A DNA stretch of 64,000 bases from Amoebophrya sp. A120 (Eukaryota; Protista; Dinoflagellata). Under the pieces are notes generated by a model, which searched no databases, had not been told where the DNA came from, and was given only the letters and a program-made list of their open reading frames with translations. Below, one piece after another: positions 1-47,641 of the stretch. The stretch spans positions 1,167,858-1,231,857 of the forward strand of contig CAJINV010000014.1 of assembly GCA_905178155.1 (NCBI GenBank), in the 5' to 3' direction. Each line of letters begins with the position of its first letter. Within the stretch, counting starts at the first letter, position 1. The translations under genes and the position numbers were made by a program.

Positions 1-2988
1 AACGACAGTTCCATATCCTTCTCCCCCTGCTACTGCGCTCCGGAGTGGGCCAACTTTCTGATTGAGGACGGCGACTTTTTGAAAGTGGGGCACCAACTGG
101 ACGTGTGGAGCGTGGGCGTGTCGCTCTGTGAGCTGATCACCCTCGACGCGGTGTTAAAACCGAAGTACGTCTCGATTTACAGAAACACGGGCTCCCACAG
201 AAAAGCCGGGTTTCTGTTTCTCGAGTGGCTCGCCAACGGAAAGGAGGGGCTGGCACTGGATCAATCGGTACTGTATTGAATCAAAACGCTGACCACCACC
301 AGATATATCTTTCTGTAGCTCCTAGTCAAGTTAAAAACAAAAACTTTTTTGTTTGTACAACACTGCAAAAAGCAAAAGTTTTTGAGCACAACGACTTGAT
401 TTTCGTGTGCTACAACTATACCTCTCGTCCGCCACAGATTTCGAAATTCGACCCCGAGTTTACGGATATGGTGCTGACCCGCATGCTGAATAAGAACCCC
501 ATGGCCCGCGTCTCCCTGTATCCCAGAGAAGAAAGCAGGCAGGTCATATTTGTATATGCAAGAATAAACACACCGAATCAGAAAAATCTGTCTTGGGCGG
601 CCCCGTAGCATGCTGTTTAGGATATGTCTTTGTTTGTTTGTTTTTGCATAACAAATATGACCTGCCTTTTTTTTTCTGTGGGATACCCTGGCCGACATGC
701 TGAATCATAACTACGTGAAGGACTGCATCGTGCCCGGCCTGGATACGACGATCGACAAGAAGCAGGAGCACCTGGGCGACAAGGAAAAGGTGAAAAAGCA
801 CCGGTTGGAGCGCTTGGAGGTGAAGGAGACCGACCAGCCACCGCTGATCAAGGGCGTCTTGTGGAAACTGAACTCGGACGGGGACAAGGAAAACGTGGAG
901 CACTGGCTGCGACGGGACGTGTGGCTCGACTGCAAGGGCAACCTGTGTATGCATTGCAAATATGTCTGGGTCTGGAAGGCTGTAACTTGTGATGCTACCT
1001 GTACCTTTGCACTCTACATAAGATCTGTATTGCATGAAAAGCAAATAAAGAGGTGCGCTTTTTGCTACGCGGGGAGAGAATTTCTCATGCGGTACGAGCA
1101 TCAAGGAGCCCTCGCAGAATCTCTGATGCTAGGGCATGCATTACAGACATCAGTGGTCATGCAAAATATGCATGACAATCCTGGCACTTTTCCAGACCCA
1201 GACATTTTTGCACTTTGTACTGTGCTACTACTCCCAGAAAAAGAACAAGCGGCTGGTGATCCTGGACGTGAAGCACCTGGCCACCGCGAAACTGAGCAAG
1301 ACCGGGGAGAAGTCGGTCGACAGTCTGAAATGCGCGTTGCCGCACGTCATCTGCGTCGACTTCGTTTTGGAAGAGTCCGAACTGTCCGACGAAACCAAAA
1401 ACATATTGAAAGGAAAAAATTCCCCTCCCCACATTGAAAAGGTATGTTTCCGAAAATCTGTGTTGCTGATTTGAGGCCACAAATCACATTTGTCTTGCAA
1501 GATGGCAACGCCACAGGTTCCGCCGCATTTTGCAGGCGGTTCGTCATGCTGTTGGGCCTACAGCGCAGACGCTTGTCATGCTAAGCGCCTAGGCCAAAGC
1601 CTCTCTACCCAGGCTTGATATGGGCGCGCAGTCCTCTCCAGCAAGACAAATTTGATTTGTGTACACAGATCCAGCATCAGAAATTCCGTTTTGATATGGG
1701 GCGGGGGGATTTTTCCTTTCGATAAAACGCGCACGAAACCCAGTACTACGCGGCCGAGAGTCACGAGGAGTTGAAAAAGTGGTGCAAGGCGTATAACCTG
1801 CTCAGGTGTTACAATCTCAAACGTTACAATAGAGTCTGGAACTTGTGAAGCAAGAAGTGCATTATCTGGCCAACTCTCATAGGATTGCGCATGACAAGTT
1901 CTGGAGTCCCAATCCGCACTACGATCTGGCGAAATTTGTATTGCAAAAAGTGGAATGCTGTCCGAGTCTGTCATGCTCATCATGCAATATAAGACCAAGA
2001 CTCTATTGAAAAGTTTGAGATTGTAACGTTTGAGCAGGTCATAAAGCGCTCGAGAACGTGATCCAGAACCCGGACAAGTTTGACGTCACCGACGGGCTGG
2101 CTGGAAATCAGAAGGTGCACGTGTCGGCTATGGCCCGCTCAGGTGTTACAATCTCATCAAGTCGGTTCTTACCATAGAGTCTGGAATAAATCTGTGATGC
2201 AAGAAGAAGTGCATGAAGATCTAGTTGTAGCCAGGTTTCACAGGATTGCGCATGACAAGTTCTGGAGTTCCAAATCGCGCCAGAATCTCCTTGAGAAATT
2301 TGTATTGCAGAGAGCGGAAGAACTCGTCTCTGCGAGTCTGTCGTGCTCATCATGCAGGACAAATTCCAAACTCTATCGTTGTAACGCTATAAGATTGTAA
2401 CACCTGAGCGAGTTATATCGGCCAGCATGGTAGAGGAGTTCCGGGAACTGCGGAAAATGCGGAACCGAAGAGAAAAGATCGATAACCACCCGCAGTACCA
2501 ACCAGTTTTTGAGAAGGAGTTGTGGAAACTGAATTCGGACGGTACCTGAATTTTTCAGGCTAAGGTTTGTGATGTCAACACTGATTGTCAGATTGCATTG
2601 GCTGTTGTTTTCTTATCCGGTTTCCACTCTGTGTTGATAATTCATTTTCACTTCGATCACAGGTGACGCGCTCCAGGAGACCGACTGGACCTTCCGAAAG
2701 ATGTGGCTCGCAAAGAACGGCGCGCTGTGCTATTTCAGCAAGAAGGAAAACAAGGAGCTGATGTACTACCGCCCGGAGGACATCCGGCAGGTAACCTACC
2801 GAAAGTTGAAGTACCCCCAGGAGTGCTGCCGACCGCACGCGTTTGAGCTGGCCCTGAAAACCAGCGGGGATAAGGAGCTGGAATTCGCCCCCGGAGTGTT
2901 CGCGGCAGAGGAGGAGAGCGTGATGGCGATCATCTTGGGGTGCATCGAAAAGTACCAGAAAATCAAAAACTCCGCAACCAGCAGCTGA
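1..2988 (+). CDS. Ser/Thr protein kinase (C-terminal part of catalytic domain) followed by two PH-like domains; 5' end lies outside the window
   Basis: Exons 1-267, 438-518, 691-947, 1225-1402, 1729-1791, 2049-2128, 2423-2541, 2663-2988 total 1371 nt in one open frame. Kinase motifs SPCYCAPEW and LDVWSVGVSLCEL; duplicated PH-like segments LWKLNSDG..W.R..WL...G.LCY. GT-AG introns 268-437 and 2542-2662, plus five TIR introns. Confidence 0.88.
519..685. mobile_element. TIR introner (non-canonical intron), singleton family A
   Basis: Ends tatcccagagaa...ttctgtgggata, inner arms ggcaggtcatatttgt/acaaatatgacctgcc. DR ccctg at 514-518 and 686-690. Removing 172 nt gives ARVSL|ADMLNH. Confidence 0.92.
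948..1219. mobile_element. TIR introner, family B (orientation 2)
   Basis: TIR tgcaaatatgtctgggtctggaa / ttccagacccagacatttttgca. DR ctgtg at 943-947 and 1220-1224. Removal gives KGNLC|YYSQKK. Confidence 0.93.
1404..1724. mobile_element. TIR introner, family C
   Basis: TIR tattgaaaggaaaaa..cccc / gggg..tttttcctttcgata. DR aaaca/aaacg. Homologous along its length to 61821-62148. Removal gives DETKN|AHETQYYAA. Confidence 0.9.
1792..2043. mobile_element. TIR introner, family D
   Basis: TIR tataacctgctcaggtgttacaatctcaaac / gtttgagattgtaacgtttgagcaggtcata. DR aggcg/aagcg. Removal gives KKWCKA|LENVIQ. Confidence 0.93.
2129..2417. mobile_element. TIR introner, family D
   Basis: TIR tatggcccgctcaggtgttacaatct / agattgtaacacctgagcgagttata. 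DR tcggc at 2124-2128 and 2418-2422. Removal gives KVHVSA|SMVEEF. Confidence 0.93.
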
Positions 2989-4143: not shown

Positions 4144-6546
4144 ATGTGTCCGAACCTCACGCCCGCCAGTGCCAGCTCCTCCTCGACCGGAGGCTCGCCC
4201 TCGGCGTCTGCAGCAAAGCCACTGTCACCACCTGAACCAACCGAGATCTTCTGCCACTTACCACTTCCAAATGGGACTTTTTACACCCGAAAAGTCAACA
4301 TAATCGATTACGGTATGACGTTTGCGATGGTAAAAAGACACTTCCTGCAGGATGCGCAGATTGCCCACCCGGAGATTCTGGGTAGCAGTCAAAAATGGCA
4401 GTTTTTCACCGACCAAAATTTCTGCATTCCAGACGTGAACCCGATTGGGATGTTCTGCCCCTTACCACTTGTGGAAAACGGCAACAGTAATACAACACGA
4501 CGGGGTATCCAATGCAAATGATGTGCCTGGGTCTGGAAGACGCCCGACGCTTTTCAGGCGGTTTGCGCATGTGCGCGAAGGGCGGGATACATAGCACGGA
4601 AAGCATGGCAAGTTCTTTTCTGCGGGGGCTTCTCCATGCCTTGTCTGCATAAGAAAACTTCCGTCCCCGCCTGGAGACAAAAATTGCGCATCTTTTTTTA
4701 CTGACTGTGTATACAGCACAGAAGATTTTTCGTCCTTTCAGAATCCGCATTTGAAGTTTGCTTTCTTCCAGAGGGCAGTTCCTGGCTCGCCTGGGCAGTG
4801 CCCAAGAAGCTTGCTCCACATTGCGTTCTTCCAGACCCAGACATGTTTGCAATGCATACAGGGTAAAAAGATCGAGGAAGACGAGAAACGGTTTGCGATA
4901 TGAGAGTACACAACTAGTACCCCAGGTTCTCAATTCTCATGCAAAACAGTAACTCCACACTTTCCCTCGTGGTCCTGTCACTACTATGCATGATAGGTCC
5001 ATCTTGCAGCCCAAACAGCATCACAACCCTGGGAAAACTTTATCTTGCAAAACCAGGGGGAGTCGTGAGGTTGTGCACTCTCATACAAGAAGCACGAGTA
5101 CTACAAAATTGCGGAAACAGCACCTGACTTTCACGACGATTTTTTTCTGAAGCCAGCGACCGAGAACAGCGAAAACTCCTTGTCGAAGGGGAATGAACTG
5201 TCCTACTACTACGCCCACGGCACAAAGGCGGACAGTAGCAGCAGCCAAAATAGTACAACGGCGCGGGCGCCGCTTGAGCTATCGCAGACAGCGTCGAAGG
5301 GAACAATATGCTCTGCAAAAGTTGTATCATAGTCGTACTAATTGCATTCGTGCAGGACAAATCCTGTTTCATAGCCAAATCAGCGTTAGGAATTCCATTT
5401 TTCCTCCTGGAAAAGTTTGTGATGCGATTTATAGATACTTACTAGAACGATACTTTTTTTGCAATCCATAAACAAGTGCGACGCACAACAAAAGGCAAAG
5501 TCCGTTCGGAACCAACATCGAATTGTACGAGACAATCACAAAGTATAGATGGTTTGTCGTTATGTGTTGAGCTCCTTTGATTTGTCATGCGGAGCTGCGT
5601 TTTACCTTTACAATTACATGCAGATACAGACCTCGTTTTGATGTTTTTGGTCTTGATATGCAGAACGCGATCGCAAAAATGACCGCATTGCATCAAACAT
5701 GCAGGTACTCGTTCGAAGATCACAACAACACGACGGTGAAAGTGTTCGTTCCGCTCGACAACGTGGGCAAACTGGACGCGAGCAAGGTCGAATCGAGGTT
5801 TGGCGAAAGGTATCATAAGGACATAGATACTCATACTCTTGTTTGTTTTCGGCGCATAAGAGTTTAGTGAGGACGCATTAGTAGGCTGGAAAGAACGAAA
5901 ACGAGAAGCAAGAGCGTCTTTAGTGCCTTTTCTCCTTGTTATGTGGCGTTGTATCATTGTGACTTTAGAATCCGCCACCCCAGGTCCTTCGAGCTCCTTG
6001 TCCACGGTTACCAGGGAAAGAATTGGCGACTCGGGTGCGCAAAGACGCACGAATTCATCAACGTGGAGAAGTCACGACACGCGATCCGGAACAACAAAGT
6101 CACGCTCTATTTGCACAAAGCGTATCCACTGCACATATCGATCTGGGTCTGGAGGAAGGCAGATGTAATCGAATCCGTCATGATCCTGCATTAGCATTTT
6201 GATTTTTGTTTTTCTGACCTACAAGAGGGCTTTATGCAGCAAGAGCAACAAGCAGAGCATATCCATATGCATAACTAAAAACAAGTTACGCAGGGGCCTT
6301 TCCTTGCTTGCTAACGGGAATGAAAAGAACAAGTGCCGCTCCTCCCCGAGAAACAAGCGCACTTATGTTGCTTAGGAAGCCTCATTTTCTTGTTTCGGTG
6401 CTACAGAACCAGAAGCAGCATCACTATCACAAGTTTGCATCCTTCGAGGCCCAGATGCCATGCTTGCAATGCATAGAGTGAACGACGGCGCGATCTGGTT
6501 TGACTTGTTTAAGAAGAAAGCCATTGGGGATGATGAGAAGCCATGA
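4144..6546 (+). CDS. CS (p23/SGT1/CacyBP-like) domain co-chaperone-like protein, about 329 aa
   Basis: Exons 4144-4505, 4864-4898, 5091-5306, 5476-5542, 5705-5809, 5984-6122, 6481-6546 total 990 nt in frame. Contains SYYYAH and ITKYSFED..TVKVFVPL..V....VESRFGERSFELLVHGYQGKNWRL...KVTLYLHK...WFDLFKKK, which resembles the calcyclin-binding-protein CS domain. GT-AG introns 5543-5704 and 5810-5983, plus four TIR introns. Confidence 0.82.
4506..4858. mobile_element. TIR introner, family B (orientation 1), diverged
   Basis: tatccaatgcaaatgatgtgcctgggtctggaag ... cttccagacccagacatgtttgcaatgcata. DR cgggg/caggg. Removing 358 nt gives TTRRG|KKIEED. Confidence 0.87.
4899..5085. mobile_element. TIR introner, singleton
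   Basis: TIR tatgagagtacacaac / gttgtgcactctcata. DR tgcga/caaga (diverged). Removing 192 nt deletes a TGA and gives KRFA|KHEYYKIA. Confidence 0.83.
5307..5470. mobile_element. TIR introner, family E
   Basis: tatgctctgcaaaagttgtatc ... gatactttttttgcaatccata. Perfect DR aacaa at 5302-5306 and 5471-5475. Removal gives SKGT|SATHNK. Confidence 0.87.
6123..6475. mobile_element. TIR introner, family B (orientation 1), strongly diverged
   Basis: tatccactgcacatatcgatctgggtctggagg ... ccttcgaggcccagatgccatgcttgcaatgcata. DR aagcg/gagtg. Removal gives LYLHKA|NDGAIWFDLFKKK. Confidence 0.8.
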
Positions 6547-7790: not shown

Positions 7791-10700
7791 ATGGCCTCTC
7801 GAGGTCGTTCCACCGTTGCGTCATCTTCCAGCGGCGCCGCTTCATCTGCTTCTGGTCCTAACATGACCAGGCGCCCGACAATCGAGGAGACAAATCGCGA
7901 CTCCAGGACTTCAACCTCGTCCCCAGGTGCAGCAGATACGCCGGCTGGACAGACAGAAACTACAATTTCGGGTGCGGGTGGCTCTGCAACAGAACAGCAA
8001 ATGCGGAGCTCCAGTACAGTTTTTAACCAAGAAGTCCAAGAACCATCCTCGAGCATCCGGGCGACCCGGCGGTCCACCCGGTCCATCCGATTCATCGAAG
8101 ATCCGGTGCGAGACGAGATCGCGGACCAGGACAAGAAGGCGTTCTACGACGTGGAAAAAATGATCATGAACGACGTGCACCTGCACAACGACAAGGAGCA
8201 CTACATTGTCCCGCCGGTCAGGTGTTTCGAGCCGCAGGTCACCCGCGTGAAGGTGCTGTTCCCGCTGGACCTCGGCGCCGATGAGCTGACCACCCAGCAG
8301 GACATCCAGCGAACCGGGTTGGTGGTCGACAACCAGCACCCGAGGGGGAAAAAACAGGTGAAAATTTGTTGGGACACGGACAACAAGGATGAATTCGAGG
8401 AGATCGCGGAGGAACTCGACGAGAGTTACGCGCAGCACGTAATGGAGGACCAATTTGACCTCGGGGAGAAGTCGAAACGGCGGAAGAAACTGCTGCCGGC
8501 GAAGGCCGACAGCTGGGAAAAGGTGGAGAACTTGCAGATCATCCCGCGGGTGTCCTACCGCGCGCACCACTACGAGGGCCGGTTCGACGTGGATGCAAAC
8601 GTGAAGGACATGAAGGCGAAGTTCTACGACAAAGCGCACGGCCAAAAAGTCTCCGCCCACGCGGACGCGATTCAACTGGTGCCGGAACGGGTGTCGCAGT
8701 TCGACCAGCACGAGGTGGCGCAGGACGGGTTTTATCGGTACTACGATAAGAACGGGCAGTTTCGCGACGACGCGCTCTTCGCGTCCAGCACCTTCGGCCA
8801 GGCGGGGAAGTCCGCGGAGGGCCCGGGCGGACCACTGTCCTTGGACGGGGGGCTGACGGATTGGCTGCAGGGCCCGACCTTGATCAAAAACACGGTTTTT
8901 CAGGACCCCTATTCCACGCATTCCCGGTACTACGGGGCCACGTACGTGGGGAAACAAAAGCGCTTTAAAAAGTCGGTCACGGGAACCGCAGACGCCCTGA
9001 GACAGAGCAAGAGCGAACTTGCCGCGGCAGGCAGAGGGGTCGTGGACAACAGCGACGAAGAAACTTCAGATCTTCCTCAACAGCCGATTGACTACGAGGA
9101 CGACCCGCCGGTGCTGCCGAAATCCCACCCCTTCCACCCGAAGACGGTGGAGAAATTCAACAAGAAGTTCTTCAAGGACGTCCCGCTACCCGGCCCCATC
9201 ACCGCGGAACTCGAGGCAATTCCGGATCGCGACCCCAAGCGCAAGACGAAGTCGGTCATGGAATCGGCCGGGGGAGCGCTGGGTAGTGTAGGGGGAGATT
9301 TGCAGGTGGAGGATTACGTCAGTTCCGAAGAGGAGCGAGAGAAAGAACGACGGAAGCAATTGTTACAGGGGAAAAACCGGAGTAAAACCAGAACCACAGG
9401 TACAACTACACCAGGTGCCGCAATGCCGCCCACCGTGGACGACTTGATCAATCCCGGGCCTTTGCTGGAAAGGAAATCGGAGAAATTTCAGCGCGAGGAG
9501 CAATATCCTGTGCAAAAGTATCGTGCTCGTATTGCAATCATGCATTACAAATTTTTTTCTTATACGAAAATCCGCATTACAAATTTTATTTCGCATGCCG
9601 AGGAAATGCATTTAGACGAGTGCGATACTTTTGCAATGCATAAGCAAGAGAAGCGGACATCATCATCTTCGCAGCAACAACTGCACGAAACCCTGTCCGA
9701 TGTGCCGACGGATGAATTCGAGGAGGCGCTGTACCGCGGTGCGCCGAAGACCGTAGACGTACTAGACCCCAGGGACTGGCTGCGGTCGGACCAGGACAAG
9801 ACCAAGGTGGAGATGCGGGGGAACCCGGTGGTCTCGTATGTGGAGGAGCATTTTGAAATGCCGTATCAACTGCAAAAATGTCTGGGTCTGGAAGAATGCC
9901 AGACTTGCCATGCAGGTTTTCCATGACCCATGAGGTCTGGTATGTAGGACATAGCATGACAGATTCTGTGTTAGTTCGACTTCTATCATGCCTATCCTGA
10001 ATGAGAAACTGCCTCTCGATTAGGTCAAAAGTGGGCAGCTTTTGGTAATCATGCAACACAGATTTTCACATGATTCAGATTTAGCATGACAAGTTCCTTT
10101 GTTCCAGACCCAGGAGACACTTTTGCATTTGATATGCCGGACGGCAAGTTGATGAACAGTTTGCTGCCGGATGTGCCCGACGGCAGCGAGCGCTCCCCCG
10201 AGGAGGGCGCAAAGCTCGCATGGAAACTGCGAGAGCAGGCGATCAAAGGTGCCTACATGGAAAAGAAACTGCCGACAGAGAAACACGAGTACGTGTTGGT
10301 TTATGGGACCGCGGCCGGGGGAACTGAGGACAGTGAGGTGGTCGACGGCTACAAGTGGGGCAAAGAGTTCTACGCACCCTGGGTGCCGTACCCGGACGAG
10401 GTCGTAGCAAGTGACTCGGATGAGGAAAGACTAGGGACTGCTGGGGCTGCTGGTGCATCCACGTCGGCGGCGCAAAGTAGAACTTCGAAGAAGAAGCTCA
10501 AGAAGAAAACGCTGCCGCACTTTTCGCCCGAAGAGCTTATTGAGATGCAAGCGTGTCAGGAAATTTACGGTGTAAATTACGACCCTTCGAAAGTGCCGGA
10601 GGTTCTTTTGTCGGACAAAGCTAGAACAAGTGACCCTGCGAAGGACGTGCAACAAGAGCGAAGAAGTAGAGGAGAGGATGAACAAGCAAATAACGCTACT

Positions 10701-13700
10701 GCAGTTTCGAACGCGCAAGTAGAACCTCCACAGGACCAGGAGAGTATGCAAGACCTATCAAGTTCTACCCCTGAACAAGGAGATCCCCGTAAAACGCAAA
10801 CGGAAACCACTACTGAGACTGTTACCATCGCGACTAGGACCGAAGAGGTTGGCAGCTCTACTAGAAGTGGCACAACTTCAGCCACCTCCCAGCAGAAAGG
10901 AAAGGCAAGAGGCGGGCATAAAACAAAAAACCAGCCCGACTACGCAGATTTCGTGGACGGACAGATGCACTACAGTCGGTACGCTTACGAGGATATGCTA
11001 AAGAAGTTAGAGGAGGACGGCTTCACAGTTTTAAACAAGGCCACGCCGGTGATGGAGCTGCCGGTGAGATCCAACCTCTTCGAAGACTACCATGCGTTCG
11101 AACTGAAGAAGAAGCGGGCAACCGTGGTGGAGAACGCGAACAAAAAGTCGGTCGCGGTCCGGTTTTCCGGGGCGGAACAACAACAAGAACAAACCGGTGA
11201 AATGAACTCGACACGAGCGTCGAAGCAGGAAAGCTCCTTAGAACATCAAGGAGCGAATGGTGGCTCTTTCGACATGGCAACGACCGCGCTTGCGGAGAAA
11301 GCGAGGGCGGAAACGGAGAATGTCAAAGATCCGAAATCGTTTCTGAAGCGGGAGACGGACCACCAAGCAACCGAAGAGTTTCGCCGGTCGCTGACCGACG
11401 AGCACAGCTACGAGGCGTTTATGCACGTGGGGCACAAGCTGACCGGCTTCTTCGATGCCGAGGGAGACTACCACGCACAGCAGTCGAACTTGCACGACAT
11501 TCGGGTGGCCCGGGTGAAGCGGTGCGCTCCTTACAAGGGGTACAGCGAAACGAAATTAGACGGGTCCAGCCCATGGCTGCCGCCGGCGCACCGTTGGGAG
11601 GTGAGCGTGTTGGGGAATAGAGTCTGGCGCCACGAGCCGGTGGTCGACAACCGGCCGATGGTGGGGGTCAACGCGCGATTGGAAAAGGGGGAAAAGGAGT
11701 TCACGAGCAGCTACGACCCGGTGGCGGAGGGGTATGACCCGTATAGCGCAGCGAAAAATAGCTACGGCAAGAAAAAGCACTTCCCGCCGAACGACATTTT
11801 GAAACGGTACTACGCGAACACGAATCCGAAGATGAACATTTACGCGTACATTGGCAACGGGCACGTGGTCGACGCAAAGGACTTACGGGACGAGTTTCAC
11901 CACGTGTCCGACATTTACCAGTCGGAAGACCACATTGTCGACTACCCGGGATTGTTCACGAGCAAGGAACAGCAGATCAAACACCTCTACAAGCAAAAGT
12001 ACGACGAGAAGCACCCCATCAAGGACACGGCCGCCTCGTCGGCCCACCGGGACCCCATGTTCTGGTTTTACGAAGTGGCGCAGGAAAAGAACCCGGAGGA
12101 CGAGAAGGCCCAGGACGGGCGGGGCACAACCTTGAAGAAGGGGACGAGCTACTTGCGGCGCGTGTACCGCGACCTCGACTTCCCCCCGGCCAAGGAGGCG
12201 GAGGACAAGAAGCACCCAGTCTACGACTTGTTGCACTTCCTCTTAAACGGCGGCGAGACGGCGGAGGAAAAGGAGAAGCGGGAGCACAAAAAGCAGCACG
12301 AGAAGGAGCAATTGCAGCAATTCGCGAAGAAAATCGACTACACGCGGGAAGCGGGGATTGGCGGGACAGCTGCTCCGACGCTGGCCCGGCAGCACGAAAC
12401 GCCGATCGAGAAGAATGCAGAGCACATGGAAAGGTTCTTCGAGAAAAACGCGAAATACAAGTACGGGGAATTAAATTACGGCGACCTGGAGAAGGAGAGG
12501 AAACGGAGAATAGCGGATAGGGTGAACAACGATGCTGCTCTCTACCACGTGAACCGGGCGAACTTCTCGGAGATGCTGGAAATGAAGGCGTCGGTCGTGA
12601 AATCCCGGGTGGATCAGAGAGAGTCTGCGATCGCGGAGGCCGAAAGGCAGTTGGGCGTCGCGGGTCTGGAGAACAATAAAGTGCCTGTTATCCCGTTGCT
12701 CGAGATTCCGCTGCCCGATTACGAGAAAACCTTGAAGCCGCACTTCGACGACCGTATCCCGCTGCCGGAACAGATTAAGGCGAAGGAGCAGTACAAAAAT
12801 GTCTACCACGCGAAACGACGGCACCCCGCGAATCCGGAACACTTCGAGAACGAGGTGGTCGTGCTGGAGAAGCACGGCTACAACCCGGAGTACGCTTTGC
12901 AACCGCTGTTACCCCCGGTGTCGAAAGAGGAATTGGATGCCGCCTGTATCCGTGCGGGCGGTCGGTTGCAGGACGGGGACAGAATCCGGGACTTGGAGTT
13001 GCTGAAGCAGGAGGAAGATATTAAGAAGTTGCTCGCGTCTTTGGGGGAAGAAGAAGTGGACTACGGATTCAAAAACAAGAACGAAAAGATCCACTGGAAC
13101 ATATCCAGAGCAAAAACGTCCCCACCCCAGAGTCGAGATGGGGATCTCGCAACAGAAATCGAGAAGTGTTGGGAGTCAAGCATGACAAGTTCCTGTCTGT
13201 ATTGTAGTGCAGTTTAGCAAGTACAGCCGCAACACAAATCCATCTACTCATCCTGTTTACAGCATGACAAAGCCCAAAACACTATTGGAGATGCCTCTCG
13301 TGGGGATTCGCATTACAACTCTTCCTGTAACTGCAAATCTGCATGACAACTATTGTGTGGGGATGTTTTTACTCAGGATAGAACATTGTGGACCCGAGGG
13401 TGGAACTCCAACCGCACGAGTACCCGATTAAGGTTTTCGGTCCGGGTATCAAATGCAAAAATGTCTGGGTCTGGAAGATTGCCAGATTAAGATTTGTAAT
13501 GCAGTTTTTTCATGATCCAGGAAGACTGGAATGCAGGACCTAGCATGACAGATTCTGCGCGATCTCTCTCATGCCTATCCTGCATGAGAAACTGCCTCTC
13601 GATTAGGTCAAAAGTGTACAACTTTTGGCAAGCATGCAACACAGTTTTTTGCCTGCTTCGGATTTAGCATGACAAGTTGCATTTTTCCAGACCCAGACAT

Positions 13701-13834
13701 TTTTGCATTTCATACCGGGGCTGGACCCCTTCTTGGGCGAAGTGGTGTCACATCTGCCGAAGCGGAAGAGCGACGGACAGGGCCCGCCAAGCATGTGGGA
13801 CCGGATTCACGACATGATCGGGCTGGGGTCGTGA
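7791..13834 (+). CDS. Large hypothetical protein (about 1688 aa), charged and low-complexity
   Basis: ORFs 7791-9926 and 10086-13217 join, and extend to TGA at 13832-13834, after removing four TIR elements plus one DR each (144, 276, 284 and 273 nt); 5067 nt in frame. No domain recognised. Confidence 0.85.
9504..9642. mobile_element. TIR introner, family E (in frame and stop-free, hidden inside the ORF)
   Basis: TIR tgcaaaagtatcgtgctcgt / acgagtgcgatacttttgca. DR agcaa at 9499-9503 and 9643-9647. AT-rich 144-nt block within a GC3-rich exon. Confidence 0.9.
9864..10134. mobile_element. TIR introner, family B (orientation 1)
   Basis: tatcaactgcaaaaatgtctgggtctggaa ... ttccagacccaggagacacttttgcatttgata. 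DR tgccg at 9859-9863 and 10135-10139. Removal gives HFEMP|DGKLM. Confidence 0.95.
13102..13380. mobile_element. TIR introner, family F (279 bp)
   Basis: TIR tatccagagcaaaaacgtccccac / gtggggatgtttttactcaggata. DR gaaca at 13097-13101 and 13381-13385. Removal gives IHWN|IVDPRV. Confidence 0.93.
13447..13714. mobile_element. TIR introner, family B (orientation 1)
   Basis: tatcaaatgcaaaaatgtctgggtctggaa ... ttccagacccagacatttttgcatttcata. DR ccggg at 13442-13446 and 13715-13719. Removal gives VFGPG|LDPFLG. Confidence 0.95.
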
Positions 13835-14547: not shown

Positions 14548-17500
14548 ATGAAACGTCTCGGCCGCCTTTTGTCCGTCTCCGCTTTTTCCGCCTTCGTGCA
14601 GGGCGATCCACCGACCCCCGAATTGATCTGGCGCAAACTCAGTGACACGGTAGACGTGACCCTGGTCCCAAACGCAGCAGACGTCACTGGCGTCGAGCTC
14701 TCGTCTAAAAAAGCCACGCTAAGGTTCATTCGAGATGTTGGAGCTGTGCCCTCGTCGCGGGGTGAAGGTGAAGCGGACAAAGCCGTGGACGACGGACCCT
14801 CCCAGTCTAGCTCTTCGGCCAAGCAAAGTGCGCAGCAGCATCCTGCAGCGCAGCATACGGAGGATCAAAAGCCACTACCTTCGGGAGGACGACATGGGGA
14901 ACAGCAAATGGCAGGACTGCAACATGCCGAAATGCTGCGACAGGATGCGAACAAAGCTGCCTCTACGGCTTCTGCCGCCATCGTCACGGAGCAGGACTTG
15001 AACCGAATCAAGACTTCCGACTACAACGAGGATAAGATGGTGGTGAGCCTCCTCGGGGAGGAAAATGCCCAGTCCGAGTCGGATACAGAGCTGGACCTCT
15101 TAGACCTGGAGCTGCAAAACGCCCGGCGCTCCTCTCCTTCCTCTAGCTTTTTGCAAGTGACCAAACAGGACAACTTGAACCTTGGTGAAAACATCGATCT
15201 GCGAAGGAATCTCGCGAGCGCGTTTGAATCGTTAGAAAGAGTGGTGGTCGACAGCGGGAACTACTTGATGAGCAGTAGCGGGGGCACTTTCACTAAAACT
15301 CTGTCGGCTGCTGCCCCTAGCACAAGTAAGAAACAGAAGCAAGTCGTCGCGCACCTGCAACACGAGAAGATTTTACAAGGAACTGCGAAGATGATGAAAG
15401 GTGCTGCCCCTACAGCACCCGCAAGTGTGAAGAGTTTGGCAGGAAACAAAAAGTTTATGACGAAGCAAGTCACCGCCAAGACGAAGACCACCCCTGCGTC
15501 TTCTGCCGACAAGAAATTGGCTGACGGACGACCAGCGCCGGCGGAAAAAAAGCACGACCCGACCACAGGAAAACACGAGCAAAAGTTGTTCTCGACTTTG
15601 CGACAAGAGTACGAAGAGCTGGCTGAGGATAAATTTCTCAATTACCGCAACATCAAGAAAATTATCGTCGAGCGCATTCCGGACAAATCCAACGCGCTGC
15701 TGATCATGGCATTGAAGGAACAGGGGTCAACAATATCTTCATCCCCATCCGAGGACAAGAATTCCTCGCAGGAGCTGCACGAGCAGCAGGATCGTGACGC
15801 GACGACACAGATGAAAATCACGATCGCGCCAGTGCAAAAGTGGAACACCGGCGCCAGCCTCGCATCTCCGATTTTGCCCAAGGCGAGTCTGTTGCGCTCG
15901 CATGTGCACTTCTTTTTCCCGGTTGTGGACGAGAGTGAAGTTGTTGATTCTGCTGGGAGCGAGATGAACGGGGATCATGGCCAAGGAGGAGTAGAAGAAA
16001 CATCAACCGCAAAGCCGAATGCAGCTGCAAAGAACATATCTAGCGGGACGAGAACAACTGGGAACCCCTTCCGGCGGAAGAAGCATCCAAAGTTCTTGCA
16101 CGGGACGTCGACTACTAAAAGACCTGCTGGCCGCTTGGAGAACAACCCCGGTGAGAAGAAGCCGAAAATCTCCGTTCCCGATTTCGCCGCGAAACCGCTC
16201 GCGAGTATCATGGACGAGTACTTTGCCGCGGCGAAGAAAGCGACGGAAGAACACGCGGTGCGTCTTGTGGTTGATGCTTCTGAGCAACTGCAATCCAGTG
16301 CTGCTGCTGGCGGAACTCCAGCGTTTTCGACGACTGCAACGACTTCCAAAACTCTTTCATCTTCATTCCAGCAAAAGAGTGCGATCCAAGAGACCGCGAC
16401 CACAGCTGGAGGTGCAGAGCAAGTTCTTGGGGCTGTTGATTGTGGAGCAGCATCGTCAGACGACATTGAGAAATCTGTCGAGAAGGAACCTTCGCAGCTG
16501 GAAAAGGACGCGATGGAGTGGACTTTGATGGAAGCAAACGAAAATCACAAGTCCGGCGCAGACAAGTGGACTAATTTGAAGAACAAATTTGCAGATCGGA
16601 AAATGATGACAAGTTCAGCTTCTTCAGATAATAAGCAACAAACTTCGACTTCCAGCACAAGAACATCAGTGGCTACGACGGGACAGCAAGGCAAGTCCGG
16701 GATGACAAACAAGGCCCAACTACATCAACTCCGACACGAGACGGAATTGACAAAATTTCTACGCCAAGACGTGAAGAAGGCACAGGAGGCGGCAATTCCG
16801 GTGCGAAGTGATTTAGAAGTAGCCTCCGGCTCTTCCGTTGTTGTTCCCTCACATCAGGCAGGTGAACTTCCACGACCGGCAGCGAGCAACTTTCACTTGC
16901 TGAAAGCTGAGATCGAGCAACGGGAGCAAATTGACAACTCCGCGACCGAGAACGCACTCAAGCAGTACGAAGCGGACCGGGAGAAGGAAAAGGAGCGGTC
17001 GGTGGTTATCATATGTAAAAACACCCCCACACCATACACAAGATGAGAAGTCTGCAACACAAATTCCAAAGTTTTGGGAGTTCTGCATGACAAATCTAGC
17101 CCCATAGTGCAACCCTGTTTAGCTAGTTAAACAGCATCACAGATGTAGCACATCGTGCCGATTGGAGCATGACAAATTTAGAAACATGACTAAAAACCGC
17201 CTTCCATGGGGCTCCGCATGAGAAGCATTTTTACACTGCAGATTTGCATGACGACTCTGGGGCGCGGACGTTTTCACATAGGATAGTGGTGGAAAAAACC
17301 GATTCGCAAAGAGCGAAAGCAGCTTCCTCCGCTGGGGGCGTTTTTGACACAGCGGAGGTCGAGAAGAGCTTGAATTTGAAGCCGCGAAACTTGGAAACCG
17401 ATGTGAAAGAGCAGTTTGAGGAGCAGACAGCCGGACCGTCATCAAACGCCGGAGAATATTCCCCAGGTGGACCTCCTGTGGGAGTCATTAACCACCTTGT

Positions 17501-26059: not shown

Positions 26060-27150
26060 CACCATGGCAACGGACAATATCCCGATCCTTTCAATTCCAC
26101 TTCTTTGTTTCAAGCGTTTACACTACACTCACAGTTTTGAATTTGATTTAAGTTTTCCAATAGACAAATGCACATCCAATTATACCAATCCAATTTCCAA
26201 TAGATCCAATGCACAGTAGACGACGCTGCCTACTTACCAGTAGAGTAGCAGCGGAAAGATGGGAAGAGCGCTCTCATCTGCGCGCGCCAATAATCCAATG
26301 TTGTTACAATCCAATAGAAGCATTACCTCGTAACTCGTTGCTCGTGGACGTGGTATCCGCGTTAGCAGTGCAACAGTTCGTAGGAGTGGGTTATAGCAGC
26401 TGTGCGGTCGTGTGAGGAAAATTTATTTTCGCAAGAAGAGCAAATGTCGTGTGGTGTACCAGCATCGAGCTGACTATACAACACGCTGCACGTCGACAGG
26501 GACAACACACAAAAACCGCGTAGCCGCACCTGCCAGAAGTAGTTCCACTTGATTACCTGGGCCGAGGAATGAGGAGGATTTATTTATGTCGGTATAAATG
26601 AATAAAAGCAATGCTAACAGAAGCTGATTAACCTACCTCATGCAAATGAACTCCGTGCTAATGTTGAATTTGAACGTGCGCTCACATTATTTCGCACGAT
26701 CTGTGTGGGCTATTTTTTGTACAATAAAGTCGACAACAAATACCATTGGCGTTGTCATTGGATATAGATATCAACCGCTCGAATTTTCAATTCTATCAAG
26801 AAGGCCCAGTCTTGAAAAAACGAACCTAGGCCCGCTCGTCTTGATGTTGGTCCCTTTGATGTGAGCAAAAAATGTTGGTGTCCCCGTTTTTGAGTTAGCA
26901 TCATGCGGACCTTTTTTGAAGTGGACATGCGTATCGGTCCTCTCTTGCAGCTTGTAGTGAATTATGCACGCCGGCGAATTTGGAAAAATCTGTGTTGTGC
27001 ACGTCTACGTGTTACAGGTAGAAGTTCGGTTTTCAGACAGTAAAGTAAAAAAACTTTCGTTCTATCTCTATGTCTTCGTAGTTTTGCGTCGGTCTGCAGC
27101 AACGAGGAGTGCTGTGAAGTTTTACGTACACATTTTCGTATTCGTACACA

Positions 27151-27523
27151 TGTTTCGGTGACGTTTTACAGACCGCTTGTGGTTGTTTGGCCTACAAGCC
27201 TCTTCTTCGGTAAGTAGTTGAGAGCGTGAAACGAAGAAAATCAGGGCGTGTCGGCTTCCGTTGTTTCGTACCCTTGTTTCGGTGACGTTTTACAGACCGC
27301 TTGTGGTTGTTTGGCCTACAAGCCTCTTCTTCGGTAAGTAGTTGAGAGCATGAAACGAAGAAAATCAGGGCGTGTCGGATTACGTTGTTTCGTACCCTTG
27401 TTTCGGTGACGTTTTACAGACCGCTTGTGGTTGTTTGGCCTACAAGCCTCTTCTTCGGTAAGTAGTTGAGAGCGTGAAACGAAGAAAATCAGGGCGTGTC
27501 GGCTTCCGTTGTTTCGTACCCTT
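27151..27523. repeat. Tandem repeat, 3 x 124 bp, near-identical
   Basis: Units start with tgtttcggtgacgttttacagaccgc at 27151, 27275 and 27399; only a few substitutions, in unit 2. Confidence 0.95.
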
Positions 27524-31463: not shown

Positions 31464-34400
31464 ATGAAGCGCTCACTTGCTTTGCATAATGGAGGAAATG
31501 CTCGTCCAGGTTCCGGACAACTTGGTTCTGACCCCTACCGGGCGACGACGCTCGAGTCTGCACCTGTGATTTCCCCAGAAGAAAAAGCGAAATTGGAGCA
31601 AGAAATTTACTACGCACTGAAAATTATATGTTGGGGTCTGAAACGTCGCAACTCGTAGTCGTACTGGTAAATCCAATCGGGATCGTGCAGTGAAAATGCT
31701 GCGCGAAAGCTAAAAGTTTCCAACTTCTAGTACCTGCTACACGACAAAGCGGGATTTTCTCATGCGGAGTAGGCATTAAGAAGCGAAATAAGCAGTGATG
31801 CTTTTGTGCGCATTTTTCCAGACCGGCATGATCTTCGTTGTCCAAGCTCAAGCATGCCAGAATGGGACACTCTTCCAGATCCTGACATATTTGCTGTTAA
31901 TAGCTGCCACGAAGGGAATCACCGAAGCCCGTCTTCGCAGATCAATTCTCCAAATTTCATTTTTTACAGAGGAGCACTTCCGCATGCATATGAGTAAAGA
32001 GAAACATGCAGATTTCGGGATTTGCACTTCTCGCGGTGGCTGGTGGCCTCACCAAATGGACTTCTTGTTTCGTAGGAAAGATTTAAGGTAATACAAAAGC
32101 TTGTGCACTACCTTGTCAAATGCAAAAGAGTACAGTGCTCTCAGGGCCAGGCAACACCCGCGAGTTGCTGCATGGCGTGTTGCATTTGTTATTGCTACAA
32201 ACATATTGGAAGGAGATCGCGTGCGCGATCGGCTGTTTATGGTGTGGTTGGTGTTTTTCCCGTGGATCGGTTTGCCACTCGCGAAGCCACGATTGACAGG
32301 CTCCAGAAGGAACTTGATAAAGTGAAAGCGAAGATGCCCGATCTGCCACCACTGTTGAAGAGAAGTGGCAGATTCTACGTTGATGAGCTGACCCACCAGG
32401 GCAAGTTCAACAGTCTCCCGCGAGAAGATATGCCCTGCTCAGGAGTTGCAATGTCAATGTCTCCCGTTCCAATATTTTGTTTTCGCTCATTTATTATGTC
32501 GAATTTGCAAGTGAGGTGCTTGATCTATCTTTGTTGTCCTTACAGCACTGAATCACTCCAGCTGTGTTCTTATCCTCCCAGCATCAGATGCACATACCAA
32601 GTCGAGTTCTTAGACCTACGAAGCAGAGCTGCTGTCACGCAAATAGAAGACGGAGAACTCACTGAACTTGTCTTATCTGGATTCCTCATGAAGAAGAATT
32701 TCAATTGCTGGCTAACAGTTGAGGTTGCAACACCTGAGCGGACTTCTATACCGGACAAAACATTTTTCATCGGGGAGGTGAATTGGCAGAAAGAAGAGCA
32801 CTCTCGTCCGCTGGAGGAGAAGAAAAAGGCCAAGGAACGGGAGTTCAAGAAGCACCAGAGGGAGGAGGAGTTTGAAATTCAAAATTTGAAAAAACAACCT
32901 ATCAAACTGAAAGGGGTTATTTTCACGCACTTCTGATAGAACTACAGCAAGAGCAAGACCCAAGAACAGCGTGTTTTCTCGGCGTGGTTGTGTTAGCGAA
33001 ATAGGGAAAGTGCTGTGCTGTTTGCGCCAGTCAAGGTCGAGAAATCATTTGCTTTTGGTAGCGAAAGTACAAGTGCCAAGGTTTTGCTTTCGTGTTATTT
33101 CAGTAGCACAATTACGATATAATTTGGTGTTGGTCTGTAACTCTAAACACGCGCAAGCGAAATGTTCGCCCTTTGTTTCACCTGCAATGTTACCAAGTCA
33201 ATATGTCCATGGGACCGCGTCCCGCCTTGCGAAGAGTTTCCAACTTCATCTCTCAGAGGGCCGAGATGACCCTTTGCCTTTTCAGTTTCATAAGATTCGA
33301 AGGGAAAGGACCTGTGGATGAGAGTGTGAGAGAACTCCACGACTTATCGGTAGCGCAGGACGACGCTCGCGACGAAAATTAAGCTGGCAAGAAGCCGGTG
33401 TGTGTTTGTGGTTGGTATACGGCAACACCAAGAAACGGAGCAAACCTTGCATATCCATGGAAGCCTCTGCATGGGAATAAGTAAGCATTCTGGCGTACCA
33501 CGCTACGAATGTTTTGCTTGGGGTTTCATATCGGATTCTTGTTTCTATATTATTTGCGCTTTTTAACCAGCATGAGAATGACCAACTTTTTTCATGCAAT
33601 AACATTTCAGTGTCTCACCAGTTTGGACAGACTCTCACCTCTGTTGGCGCAGATCAAGTCTCCGTGCACCCGCGCGCAGAGGAGATCTGTAAAATGTATA
33701 AATGAGTGCATCTATCTTCGCTTCATGAATTCGTCCTGGCATGATTTTGATAGGTAAACGCCGTATCTAAGTTCTGTGTGCCATTGCTCGCAAAACCACA
33801 AACCTTGCATGTCTATATTCTGAGTGAAGTGGACGCCCGGTGGATGCCTCCTATTAACGAGTTTGCCAAAGAGGCGGATTTCGCAAAGTGGTGTTGCGAG
33901 GAAGCAGGCCTTTTGAAGTTGAGTGGTGAGCCTTGTGAGTCGAAGGTTATCGTGATGTCAGCTGGGGTGAAATCGACAGAAGCAGAATGGAAGCAACCTT
34001 TTGATGCATGAAATGCCTCACATAGAGACAAGATGGCGGTACTTTGGCATGGCAAGCAATTTAAGGTGAGGATGCTGATCCATCGCATTCCTGAACCTGT
34101 AAAACAAATTATTCTATTTTGACGATTTCCCGGACGACACTGCCATACATAGGGGGCGAGCCGGAGACGGTCTTAACAAGAATTGGCTGGCCGCAAGTGA
34201 CGACGAGAAGGAGCAGATGCGACGCGACTACAACGAGAAATTCTTGCCCAAGCAGGAAGCTGAGCGTACCAAACAAGTATCTCATGAAAACAAGGCAGAT
34301 CTCTCCTGGTAGAAAGTAAATGGCGCTGCCTCGCTCAGTTATGCGGACTGGCCATGACATTTTTAGTTGTGCCAGCAGTTGGCGGGCTCGGGCACTAGGT

Positions 34401-36343: not shown

Positions 36344-38356
36344 TGATATTTCAGCTGCTCTGGCACTTCCCCTTCAGCAAAACTTAAAAAAAAACTAACT
36401 CTACTGTTCGCCGGGACACACGCCGCCAGGGGCCCTGCGCTTGCCGGGACGGCCCCGCGGGTGCGTGGGTTTCCCGCCACCGCGAACCCAGCATGGCCGC
36501 CGACGGGGGCCGCGGCCGCTTCTTTTTTGTTCGCCCCGGCTTTTTTTTTTGCTGACTTTGCAGAAAAAATGCCCGGAAACGGGAAAAAAAGGGCCCCCCG
36601 AAAGCCCAGGCGCCCGGGGTGCCGGCCCCGCCAAAGGGGGCGGAGAGACCACTTCGCGCTTTTTTTTGCCGTTTTCGCAGTTTTTTTCGCGTTTTGCCGC
36701 TTTTTTTGCTGTGTTTTGCGTATTTTTTTGCGTTTTGCCGGGCATCATTCGAGCTCGCCGGCTCCCCCCAGCCAATGGCAGGCGAACTTGTTCTCCAACA
36801 ATTGGCGGGAGGAAACTCGACCGAAAACCGGGAAAACACGAAAAAAAGAAGCAAAACGCGAAAAAAAGCTGCAAAAAACGCGAAAAAAAGCTGCAAAACG
36901 CGAAAAAAAGCTGCGAAATCGGCAAAAAAAGCGCGGGGCGGTCTCTTGAAATTCCACAAGCAGCGCGCGCCTGTTCCGCGTCGCAGCCAGGCGGAACCTG
37001 GTTGCCACCTAGGAGGCCGAAGCTGGAGCTTACGCCAAGCCTACGTCGTTCGAACTGGGTGTAAAGATTCGGAGTAAAAATCTCCGGCAAAATCGGAACC
37101 GCGGGAAAAAAAATCTCCGGCAAAAGCTGGAAACGCGAAAAACCCTAAGTGGAATCTAAGTCAAACCTAAGTCAAACCTAAGTAAAACCTAAGTCAAACC
37201 TAAGTGAATCCGCATGGTATGGCCTAGGTTTCACTTAGGTTTCACTTAGGTTCCACTTAGGTTTCACTTAGGTTTCACTTAGGGTTTCACTCGGGTTCCA
37301 GTTTTTTTCACTTAGGTTTCACTTAGGTTCGACTTAGGTTCGACTTAGGTTCCACCTAGGTCTCATCTAGGTCTCACTTGGGATGGTTTTTCCGGATTTC
37401 CAGCTTTTGCCGGAGATTTTTACCGTCGAAAAAAGCAAAAAAAGTCGCAAACGGAAGAAAAAAAATCGCAAACGGAGGAAAAAAAGTCATAAACCGAAGA
37501 AAAAAAGCCGCAAACTGGAGGAAAAAAGGCGCCTCAATGCCAGGAAGTGGCGGCTCGGGTTCGTTGCTATCTTTGCCCAAACAAGAGGAAAAGTCGCAAA
37601 AGTTTCAGCCCCCGTTCGTGGGGGAAGGATGCAGCTGGCTGTGACCGTAGTGCCACCGTGTAAACGGCGTCGAGCGACGGCAGTAGGTGGGCAGCCAGTT
37701 TGTTCTCTCTCCCGCAGGCGGGCGCTGGGGCGCTATTTTGCAACTTTTCCAAAAGGGAGTGGAAATGTCGCAACAAATCCAGCTCCCGCGCGCGGGGGAA
37801 AGAACAAAATGGCTGCGGCCGTAGCGCCAACGTGTAACTAAGCGCTGGCTGCCACACGACGGCACTACGTTGGCAGCCATTTTGTTCTTTCTCCCGCAAG
37901 GGGGGGCTGGGGCTTGTGCGAATTCCCCAAAAGCAAGAGTAGCAAACGGCCCAGCTCTTCTCCAGTGCAAACGCCGCGCAAGGAATCTCATCGCGCGGTG
38001 TCTCTTTTTGTTCTTTGCCCCGCTATGTCCCTGATTCGCAGGCGCGATTTTGCGCCGAGCCGTTGTCGCGAGGTTCATTTGTGTTGGGTCTAGTCTATGC
38101 TGGTTGGCATGATGGAAAGAAGACCGATGGAAATGTGCAGAACGCATCAAAATGCCATCGGTCTACGTATGGCAACCCAACATAATCAGAACAGAGTCCA
38201 GATATCAATCGGCTTTTGGAGCGAAACACGAGGGGACTACACTTAGGAATCACTTAGGCCAAATGGTCCTTTATTGAGAAAGTCCACTAGTAATAAATGA
38301 TATTTCAGCTGCTCTGGCACTTCCCCTTCAGCAAAACTTAAAAAAAACCAACTCTA
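36344..38356. repeat. About 2-kb palindrome-rich non-coding segment bracketed by 60/59-bp direct repeats
   Basis: tgatatttcagctgctctggcacttccccttcagcaaaactt(a)nc(t/c)aactcta at 36344-36403 and 38298-38356. Inside: fold-back 36655-36935, head-to-head 11-mer arrays 37140-37380 within a 25-bp inverted repeat (37109-37133 / 37397-37421), and further inverted modules 37680-37940. Confidence 0.85.
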
Positions 38357-45062: not shown

Positions 45063-47641
45063 ATGCCGCTCTTTTCACCATCGTCCACGGTTCCAGCGTC
45101 ACGACGCACCCCGCCACTTGTCCTCCACTTCGCCGTTTCATTTTTCACGACCGCTTTTATTCCGCGAACCGTCTACAGTCGCGCGACCGCTACTTCTTCC
45201 CGGAGCGGCGGCGCTGCTACCGCTCTCAACAGTCACAACTTTCCGCTGGAGGTGGGTGTCGACAATGCGCCAACAAGACCAACTTCAAGTGCCTATGAAG
45301 ATGCAACCACCGCAGCAGTGGATAGCAGCAATTTTGAGAGTAGCCAGAACAGTCTGCAGCCCGGGGACCTGTTCGATAACATCATTCCCCCGGAAGAGGA
45401 TAGAGGAGTGCAACAGAACAGGCCTTCCACAGCCAATGCTGGGAGACAAGATGAGGAAATAAACCGCCCAGAAGTTCTTGCCGCTAGGGACGAGTTTGTG
45501 CAAAGGAGACAGTCTTTCCCTGACGTCGCGACACCGGGAGCTGCAACCGGTGGCGCTCCTTCGTCAACTTCTTCTGACAGATTAGGCGGAGCACCGGCTG
45601 CACGATCATTGCAGGAGTTGCAGGATGAAGAGGTGGTGCACAATGGGCGAAAAGAATTGGAAGACAGCTCGCCGAGAGCCAGTCTGGTCCAGAAAAGCCA
45701 GTCGAGCAGGTACTTCAGCGTCAGCGAAGAGCGGACTAATAATGAAGCGCAGCGGAATGGTGAAAAGCTTCTCCAAGAGCAGCAGCAGCAGTTGTTACAG
45801 CAAGAGCAGATGAAGATGCAGTACAACCAGGGTCAGGCCCCCGCCGGTGGTTCAGCGCCGGGCGCCACTTTCAACCCCCTACCCCCGGGCCCGCTTGCCG
45901 AAGACCCGGACACGGCGATTACGAAGTTTGTCATCGCGTCGAGCGCGAGCGGGGGCCAGATTGTGTACATCAAACTCGGATCCCACAACCCCCAGCTGCC
46001 CCCCAAGCCGCTGATCGAATCTGCACTGCAAAAACCGGTGGCAATTGCGGTGGACAATCCGAATCAGTTGCTCTACGTAGCTACGAGTTGCAAAGATATC
46101 CCACTAACGTAAATCTGAATGTTGGCATTTACAATTTTTTTTCGAGTAGACAGAGACAACTCTGTGATGCTAATTTACCGAAGGCGCGACGTCTTTGTCA
46201 TGCGTTACTGGAAGTCAATTACTACGAGTGCGATACTTTTGCAAAGGATAGTCGCAGACGAAAACGCGATGAAAGTGTTGCGCTACCAGCTGAAGATCCA
46301 GGAGAACGGAGAGAAGTTATCCGCTATCAAATGTAAAAATGTCTGGGTCTGGAAGGTTGGAACTTGTCATGGTAAATCTCAATCATGCAAAAATCTGTGT
46401 TGCATGAGTGCCAAAAGCTGCCCACTTTTGACCAAGTTGGAAGGGAGTTTCTCATGCAGGATAGGCATGGCAGAGACCTCACAGAGTCTGTCATGCCGAG
46501 TCCCGCATTCCAGACCTCAAGGGTCATGGAAAATCTGCATGACAAATCTGGCATCCTTCCAGACCCAGACATTTTTACAGTTGATATCCGCGGTGGCGAA
46601 GGGCACGGTGGCGCTGAACTTTGCCGCCACGGGGGTCAGTGTGGACTCGTTTGGGAACGTGTACTTCGTCGATGGAGCGACCGGTAGTTGTTACTTTGTG
46701 ATGCGTAATATTATGGTCGTGTGCATGCACTGATTATGGTTATTCCAATGTGTAAGTGTAACCACGAGATCGACGCTCAACCTTTTTCAGGCCGTATCTA
46801 CCGGGCCGACCCAGAGCACACGACAAACCCGGTCCTCCTCTACGACGCGACGCGGCTTCCGGAGCTCAGCGGGCCGAGTCACATTTACGTGGACAATTTT
46901 CATGTTTACTGGGCAAATGGCAGCCTCGGAACGAGCTCAGGTACAGTTTTTTGTATTGTGCTGGAAAGCTACGGATTAGATATAGATACTTCCACTCTAC
47001 CGAGGAAGAGGAAGCCGCCGTGCTCTGTGATTCACAGAAGGCGCCTTTCCAAAAATATGGTAGACAAGTTTTACAACTTCTTGAACTTGAAATAATCTCG
47101 AGCAACTTTTAATCCAGGTACCATTGTTCGCGCTCCGCTGAAGCGGCCGCAGTTCAAGGAGGATGGTAGCAAACCCCCGGGGTTGAAAGTCTTGACCAAA
47201 AACGCGGAATCCGCAAATTCCGTGTGTGCGGCGGGCGACACGGTGTTTTACACCTCGACCAACAACTTTTTCCGCGCCAGCAAAATGTCCACGGAGACCT
47301 CGCCCGTGACCACCGTGGACAAAACCCTGGACGCCGTGAGCGGGCAGTGTGCGTGGGAGAAAACCGGGTCGGTAATCGTGATCGACCAGAACTCAGTGTT
47401 CCGCTATGCCGGGGCACTGTCAGACAAGTACCCGGCCAACTCTGCTGCGGCGCTGGCGGGCTCGGTGCCGAAAGCCAGGTCGCTTCTGTTCCACCTCACC
47501 GGGGGCTCGGGGGTGGCGGTATTTGTCGATCCCGGGTCCGTTGGAAAGATTCAGCACCGGAGCGTCGTCGGCGACTTTTTTTCCACGCTTTTAGCGTTTG
47601 TATTGGGCGCAGGGGTAGTAGGAATGATTGCTGCGGTGTGA
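45063..47641 (+). CDS. Membrane-anchored NHL/YWTD-like beta-propeller protein (about 617 aa)
   Basis: Exons 45063-46081, 46256-46324, 46592-46683, 46791-46940, 47118-47641 total 1854 nt in frame. Blade motifs KPVAIAVDNPNQLLYVAD, GVSVDSFGNVYFVD, GPSHIYVDNFHVYWAN. C-terminal TM segment FFSTLLAFVLGAGVVGMIAAV. Confidence 0.85.
46082..46250. mobile_element. TIR introner, family E
   Basis: tacgagttgcaaagatatc ... acgagtgcgatacttttgcaaaggata. DR gtagc/gtcgc. Removal restores the blade motif LLYVA|DEN. Confidence 0.88.
46325..46586. mobile_element. TIR introner, family B (orientation 2)
   Basis: tatcaaatgtaaaaatgtctgggtctggaagg ... ccttccagacccagacatttttacagttgata. DR tccgc at 46320-46324 and 46587-46591. 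Interior aligns to the reverse complement of 9864-10134. Confidence 0.95.

Follow-up and report, generated by a model that had tools for sequence, protein, structure and literature searches.

Introner elements of the dinoflagellate Amoebophrya sp. A120 reside in host genes in either orientation relative to the transcript, and this two-way orientation is a genuine feature that holds generally for an element class already known. We describe it for a window, by which we refer to the entire stretch of 64,000 nucleotides that was analysed and whose source name is carried by two window proteins. The elements are likely cut from RNA by a machine that measures from their paired ends and does not rely on GT-AG borders or the element interior, an interpretation to which we give slightly better than even chances.

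The window contains TA-ended inserts with inverted repeats at their termini and target duplications of 5 bp whose sequence is arbitrary, and these inserts are the introner elements with hairpin ends of Farhat et al., 2021 (PMC7789003). In the text of that study, 29,850 repeated introns are described for A120, which do not display a splice-site signature and contain an inverted repeat consisting of TAT, 7 nt and AAA next to direct repeats of 3–5 nt, introns without GT-AG account for 60–65% of all Amoebophrya introns, and a model of hairpin-mediated joining has already been proposed. The elements examined here share the inverted repeat of TAT, seven variable bases and AAA. A perfect 5-bp duplication is found in 127 of 148 distinct candidates, seven of which are window copies, one network of repeated sequences takes in 143 of the 148, and none of the equivalent cut registers at 948, 9864, 13447 and 46325 yields GT-AG. 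[quoted passage not shown] The elements themselves do not differ from the A120 introners of Farhat et al., the strain being the same by protein names, and the elements, the hairpin idea and two-way introners in other organisms are already known. Our analysis adds their orientation with respect to the transcript, the chance-level frequency of splice dinucleotides, the constraint on the terminal TA at both ends and an offset of the cut by 1–2 nt. The features of the window are listed in Table 1.

Table 1. Introner elements and host genes in the window, with strand given relative to the window and, for elements, by orientation.
Feature	Position	Strand	Remarks
Family B introner, reversed relative to transcript	948..1219	-	272 nt; perfect 5-bp duplication 943-947 and 1220-1224; within first PH domain
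Introner, other family	1404..1724	+	Imperfect duplication: 5' cut 1 nt or more before TAT
Diverged family B introner, forward	4506..4858	+	Imperfect duplication: 5' cut at most 3 nt before TAT
Introner, no family assigned	4899..5085	.	Imperfect duplication: 5' cut at most 2 nt before TAT
Element whose ends resemble family B, no orientation call possible	6123..6475	.	Kept in stored protein P0008
Family B introner, forward	9864..10134	+	271 nt; perfect 5-bp duplication; P0007 without 276 nt
Family F introner	13102..13380	+	P0007 without 284 nt
Family B introner, forward, reference orientation	13447..13714	+	P0007 without 273 nt
Family F introner, oriented as 13102	17007..17285	+	Interior comparison
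Diverged family B introner, reversed	31611..31902	-	Duplication decayed (2/5); host frame open once removed
TA-ended insert (31986 in the preliminary description)	31989..32205	.	Interior unlike family F in either direction
Family B introner, reversed	46325..46586	-	262 nt; perfect 5-bp duplication; P0005 without 267 nt
Kinase-PH gene, 3' part (P0001), host of 948	1..2988	+	Stored protein mapping
Gene of P0008, host of 4506, 4899, 5307, 6123	4144..6546	+	3' end inferred from frame past 6123
Gene of P0007, host of 9504, 9864, 13102, 13447	7791..13834	+	Stored protein mapping
Gene of P0005, host of 46082, 46325	45063..47641	+	Stored protein mapping

Within the window, the opposite orientation of family B copies is manifested in their alignments. 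Both stretches quoted in the preliminary description are present in the window. As proposed there, the interior of 46325-46586 corresponds to the reverse complement of 9864-10134 (83.8% identity over 271 nt, E 3e-77), and the same relationship is found between 13447 and the reversed 46325 (80.8% identity) and between 948 and the reversed 13447 (69.9% identity, E 4e-24). When the terminal repeats are left out of the comparison, z-scores of 38.7 for the pair 46325/9864 and 20.1 for the pair 948/13447 are obtained in reversed alignment, compared to 2.6 and 1.6 for the respective direct alignments. A profile of family B interiors identifies 4506 as forward (E 2e-16) and 31611 as reversed (E 1e-12). 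The proposed grouping of 948, 46325 and 31611 is thus reproduced by the trimmed alignments for the first two and by the interior profile for the third, and that of 9864, 13447, 4506 and 6123 in the other direction holds for the first three members, whereas the interior of 6123 shows no significant match in either orientation. All host genes had been placed on the plus strand, which is where P0001 (hosting 948), P0008 (4506 and 6123), P0007 (9864, 13447 and 13102) and P0005 (46325) map; for 17007 and 31611, the host gene is assigned to the same strand by the codon model only. For family F, which was suspected to behave alike, the insert described at 31986 is unlike 13102 and 17007 either way (z at most 0.6), but the family is found in both orientations (5:4) once related loci are added. 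The segment 27000-30000, which is the sole 3-kb tile scoring for minus-strand coding, harbours a 124-base tandem repeat (27141-27524) and is devoid of family B copies. At 37074-37423, 11-base repeats in an inverted array form a long palindrome. Additional inverted repeats are located at 36653-36917 and at 37779-37910, and positions 51496-51595 constitute an assembly gap of 100 N.

Beyond the window, a repeat scan of a single metagenome assembly, covering 150 of about 500 estimated loci, 80 of them with long flanks, stands in for a genome-wide count. The best copies in this assembly, which may differ from A120 itself, are about 90% identical to the window copies, and its contigs do not overlap with exons of the window. 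The coding strand was assigned by a codon model, which made 497 correct calls out of 500 among 557 held-out test points and whose calls agree in 30 of 31 pairs located on the same contig. In the network of 143 candidates, none of 3403 links is inconsistent in orientation. Among 115 callable copies, mostly from the related assembly, 59 run with the reference and 56 against it when compared to the predicted coding strand (p 0.85), with five of the 148 candidates left out for being outside the network and 28 for lacking a strand call or matching in less than four of five duplication positions (including three strand conflicts). All seven subfamilies with calls contain both orientations, and 34 of 58 same-contig pairs are oppositely oriented, a number that does not involve any strand call. 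For copies flanked by coding sequence at either end, the ratio is 40:41, and 80 of these 81 would introduce a stop or a frameshift upon retention. The two orientations differ neither in age (identity 0.906 versus 0.896, p 0.49) nor in the decay of their duplications. Three further families are found at ratios of 16:11, 5:5 and, for the described family F, 5:4, so that four families are mixed in orientation, and three small groups show 2:0 each.

The removal of the elements can be followed in the annotated proteins. P0001, P0007 and P0005 drop exactly the element plus one copy of the duplication at 948, 9864, 13447 and 46325, corresponding to 277, 276, 273 and 267 nt, and copies of both orientations are thus missing from the stored proteins. 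At the two junctions of reversed copies (948 and 46325), colinearity with orthologs is maintained. Since the gene models behind the stored proteins were built from transcript alignments, this loss at the level of the protein provides indirect evidence for removal from RNA. RNA runs X7–X9 contributed 176, 5 and 1 reads, all of which are confined to elements and none of which covers an exon of the window. In run X7, 71 reads at 10045-10096 and 13447-13480 correspond to a single family B copy next to a foreign flank that resembles an exon, and it is possible that a related strain has retained this copy or not yet spliced it. A different case is found in P0008, which enters 6123-6475 for 23 codons before reaching a stop, while the frame would be about as long if 6123-6475 were removed; either an old copy is retained or the annotator has picked the longest frame.

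These data bear on the possibility that a single orientation is removed well, with reversed copies being retained or residing in dead alleles and their annotated removal being a modelling artefact. In-silico excision restores the frame regardless of what the cell does, no RNA junction was observed directly, and copy 6123 is kept in P0008, all of which would be in line with such a scenario. Nevertheless, the transcript-based proteins lack the reversed copies 948 and 46325 at junctions where orthologs are colinear, and the equal numbers, ages and duplication decay of both orientations, combined with the disruptive nature of 80 of 81 copies, do not fit a purging of one orientation, which makes this explanation very improbable. 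Orientation-independent removal, as claimed initially, thus appears to take place on the basis of annotated proteins, orthologs and population statistics, although it was seen in no RNA reads for reversed copies.

We consider it similarly improbable that transcribing nuclei eliminate the elements at the DNA level, as ciliates do with their internal eliminated sequences, in which case orientation would be irrelevant. The TA ends, the inverted repeats, the exact restoration of the target and the symmetry of orientation would all fit a transposase-like reaction. However, contigs of run X5 that are identical to the window cross the borders between exons and elements at a depth of 43–45, equal to that of unique flanks; the view on empty sites in this run is based on 15 listed of about 900 joints in a sample of unspecified life stage and would be compatible with rare empty sites. 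Moreover, 141 copies are in place in the second assembly, and the reads joining a foreign flank to a family B repeat originate from run X7, which is recorded as RNA and thus contains the element. Syndinians are not known to possess a separate somatic nucleus.

If the elements are removed from RNA, the question arises where the signal is located. A canonical GT-AG pair is available in 6 of 107 copies, three in each orientation, compared to 4.0 expected and 7 in the antisense control. For GT/GC/GA-AG, the number increases to 16 of 107 (11.6 expected, 9 antisense), and any GT or any AG is found in 50 and 58 of 107 copies, with 45.3 and 56.2 expected, respectively. With these counts at chance level, the elements do not recruit splice sites. 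Across 178 elements of all families, a search that yielded no element in three shuffles, the sole common motif is TAT(C/G)-N4-G-N-AAAA, and the 5' arm of the transcript and the reverse complement of its 3' arm share an identical majority sequence. In a search that did not require it, the terminal TA shows a single deviation among 468 sites, against 12 among 468 for positions 3 and 6 (p 0.003) and 47 among 1339 within unselected arms. TA is thus constrained at both ends, as a base pair predicts, although its conservation could partly reflect the needs of the transposase. The equal orientations, the lack of recruited splice sites and the one shared end motif together restrict the signal to some 14 nt at either end and consequently rule out a branch point in the interior. 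This agrees with the initial proposal that the interior carries no directional signal and that the terminal repeats have to contain it. A signal confined to the ends does not, by itself, choose between machines. In family B, the arms (13447-13476 and 13685-13714) contain an internal GT in the 5' arm and a pyrimidine-rich CAG in the 3' arm whichever way the element faces, so that a canonical cut further inside could be possible.

The position of the cut is bounded by three annotated junctions with imperfect duplications (1404, 4506 and 4899, Table 1), which do not include reversed family B copies. If a single register holds, the stored proteins place it 1–2 nt outside of the element on the 5' side and 4–3 nt on the 3' side. 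BLAT slides ambiguous introns toward GT-AG. Because BLAT was used for the gene models, we have not counted as evidence the nine commonest A120 borders in Table S4 of Farhat et al., 2021, which all contain a T in second position and fit an offset of 1 nt best (24% versus 0–11%). At position 4 of the repeat, C is commoner in the 5' arm of the transcript where the arms differ in any family (40 versus 21, p 0.02, uncorrected for 14 positions), which is the sole hint of directionality. The asymmetry between the 5' and 3' arms at conserved positions is not significant (61 versus 75, p 0.27).

We have also investigated whether pairing of the arms leaves traces in the sequence. A forward and a reversed copy are each predicted to form a stem that joins their two ends (z -5.3 and -9.6), and the first and last bases are paired in 86 of 114 predicted folds. 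Conversely, we found no excess of G.U over A.C on the transcribed strand (105 versus 130, p 0.12; 26 versus 20 without positions varying between families) and no folding advantage of the sense strand (57 of 115). The wobble and strand tests thus give RNA pairing no support, but both are weak since a stem of 30 bp may tolerate such changes. Positions 4 and 7 of the stem are often unpaired, with Watson-Crick pairs in 66 of 118 and 41 of 117 cases, and pairing is frequently predicted to continue between the flanks (at least 5 pairs in 82 of 114), which is why the end of the helix alone cannot serve as ruler.

The described properties leave room for a remodelled host spliceosome that reads linear signals supplied by the inverted repeats in both orientations, with pairing being incidental, which we regard as possible but rather unlikely. 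With an offset of 1 nt, the intron would start with N-UAU, comparable to the GUA(C/U) donors of the host, and its 3' cut would be placed by measuring from a signal located in the 3' repeat without requirement for AG; it is this resemblance that keeps a remodelled spliceosome in play. In the window, all six annotated canonical donors start with GTA and five of them with GTAC or GTAT, whereas de novo prediction of canonical introns had recovered two of six known introns and its donor spectrum was left out. The text of Farhat et al., 2021 (PMC7789003) reports 83 of 89 spliceosomal proteins in A120 with U1 snRNA undetected. Non-canonical transposon-derived introns in Fritillaria are described as spliceosomal (PMC11282704), and spliceosomal introners working in both directions exist in other organisms (bioRxiv 10.1101/2020.10.14.339549). 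The negative outcome of both pairing tests and the weak hint of direction at position 4 point the same way. On the other hand, the first, last and second-last bases of the introns are free, unlike in Fritillaria, Polarella and Aureococcus, the TA at the 3' end is as conserved as its counterpart at the 5' end, the cross-family motif is the only one found and does not resemble a branch site, and the bias at position 4 opposes a branch motif of the form G-A-T at the 3' end. The argument that orientation independence alone speaks against a directional machine does not hold, since inverted ends present identical sequences at the 5' and 3' side and since the spliceosomal introners of Polarella and Aureococcus, in the text of the study cited above, go both ways. 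Of the two mechanisms that had been offered instead, hairpin-guided removal is an idea already contained in Farhat et al., 2021 for which two tests of RNA pairing were negative, and DNA-level excision is disfavoured.

A comparison with known systems puts these features into context. In Polarella glacialis and Aureococcus anophagefferens, introners with terminal inverted repeats and target duplications generate introns in either orientation, as in our case (Roy et al., bioRxiv 10.1101/2020.10.14.339549). As described in the text of this preprint, they obtain GT/GC/GA and AG by recruitment from either the duplication or the element end, whereas there is no such recruitment here (possible in 16 of 107 copies, with 11.6 expected), and classes 6, 8 and 10 show an orientation bias that is not detectable in our elements. 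The two-way use without any splice-site dinucleotide is thus unusual. The introns of Fritillaria borealis likewise derive from elements with inverted repeats and target duplications and break the GT-AG rule, but prefer the ends AG-AC and AG-AT and are reported as spliceosomal, whereas the ends are free here (text of PMC11282704). The closest working analogue is the nonconventional intron of Euglena, for which a signature with a short 5' and a longer 3' spacer was genetically defined (PMC12501133). According to the texts of PMC12501133 and PMC11282704, these introns share with our elements a MITE-like character, paired ends (predicted in our case), free terminal bases, direct repeats and a 5' spacer that is shorter than its 3' equivalent, and circular excised products have been reported for them. 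They differ in the motif, which is CAG/CTG with spacers of 3 and 5–6 nt in Euglena and TAT/ATA with inferred spacers of 1–2 and 4–3 nt here. Since the ends in the window read TAT...ATA and not N3-CDG...CHG-N5-6, the elements may work alike but are not members of the Euglena class. The words 'orientation' and 'reverse' are absent from the main text of PMC12501133.

For Amoebophrya itself, our literature searches, which covered sources other than bioRxiv supplements, returned no report of introner orientation relative to the transcript. In the text of Farhat et al., 2021, main part and supplement with figures aside, 'strand' is absent and 'orientation' is used of genes only. The search of Gozashti et al., 2022 allowed matches in opposite orientation and that of Gozashti et al., 2025 required the same orientation, and the texts of both give no orientation for Amoebophrya; the genus name is absent from Dataset S2 of the latter study, as are 'orientation' and 'strand' from its appendix.

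In the mechanism that we favour, removal measured from paired ends, a DNA transposase would have inserted the elements regardless of the direction of transcription. The two arms of an element would then pair within the pre-mRNA, and a factor would recognise the paired UA(U) at the base of the stem, with the cut being placed 1–2 nt before the 5' end of the element and 4–3 nt after its 3' end. Joining of the exons would restore the sequence present prior to insertion, and the catalyst would be expected to resemble the one acting on the nonconventional introns of Euglena. The retention of 6123 in P0008 and the lack of a junction among the reads of runs X7–X9 count against such reading of paired ends. 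A bolder version, which we put forward tentatively and consider doubtful at present, is that of a second mRNA splicing system independent of the spliceosome, in which a nuclease-ligase would act on any stem closed by UA-UA with fixed offsets and exactly undo the 5-bp duplication.

The question of how Amoebophrya removes its non-GT-AG introns (PMC7789003) is now narrowed to whether the product is a lariat or a circle, whether pairing or sequence is recognised and whether the offset follows the transcript. If a nuclease-ligase were indeed responsible, it would render harmless transposon insertions that number in the tens of thousands, whichever way they face, and would have evolved convergently with the system of Euglena.
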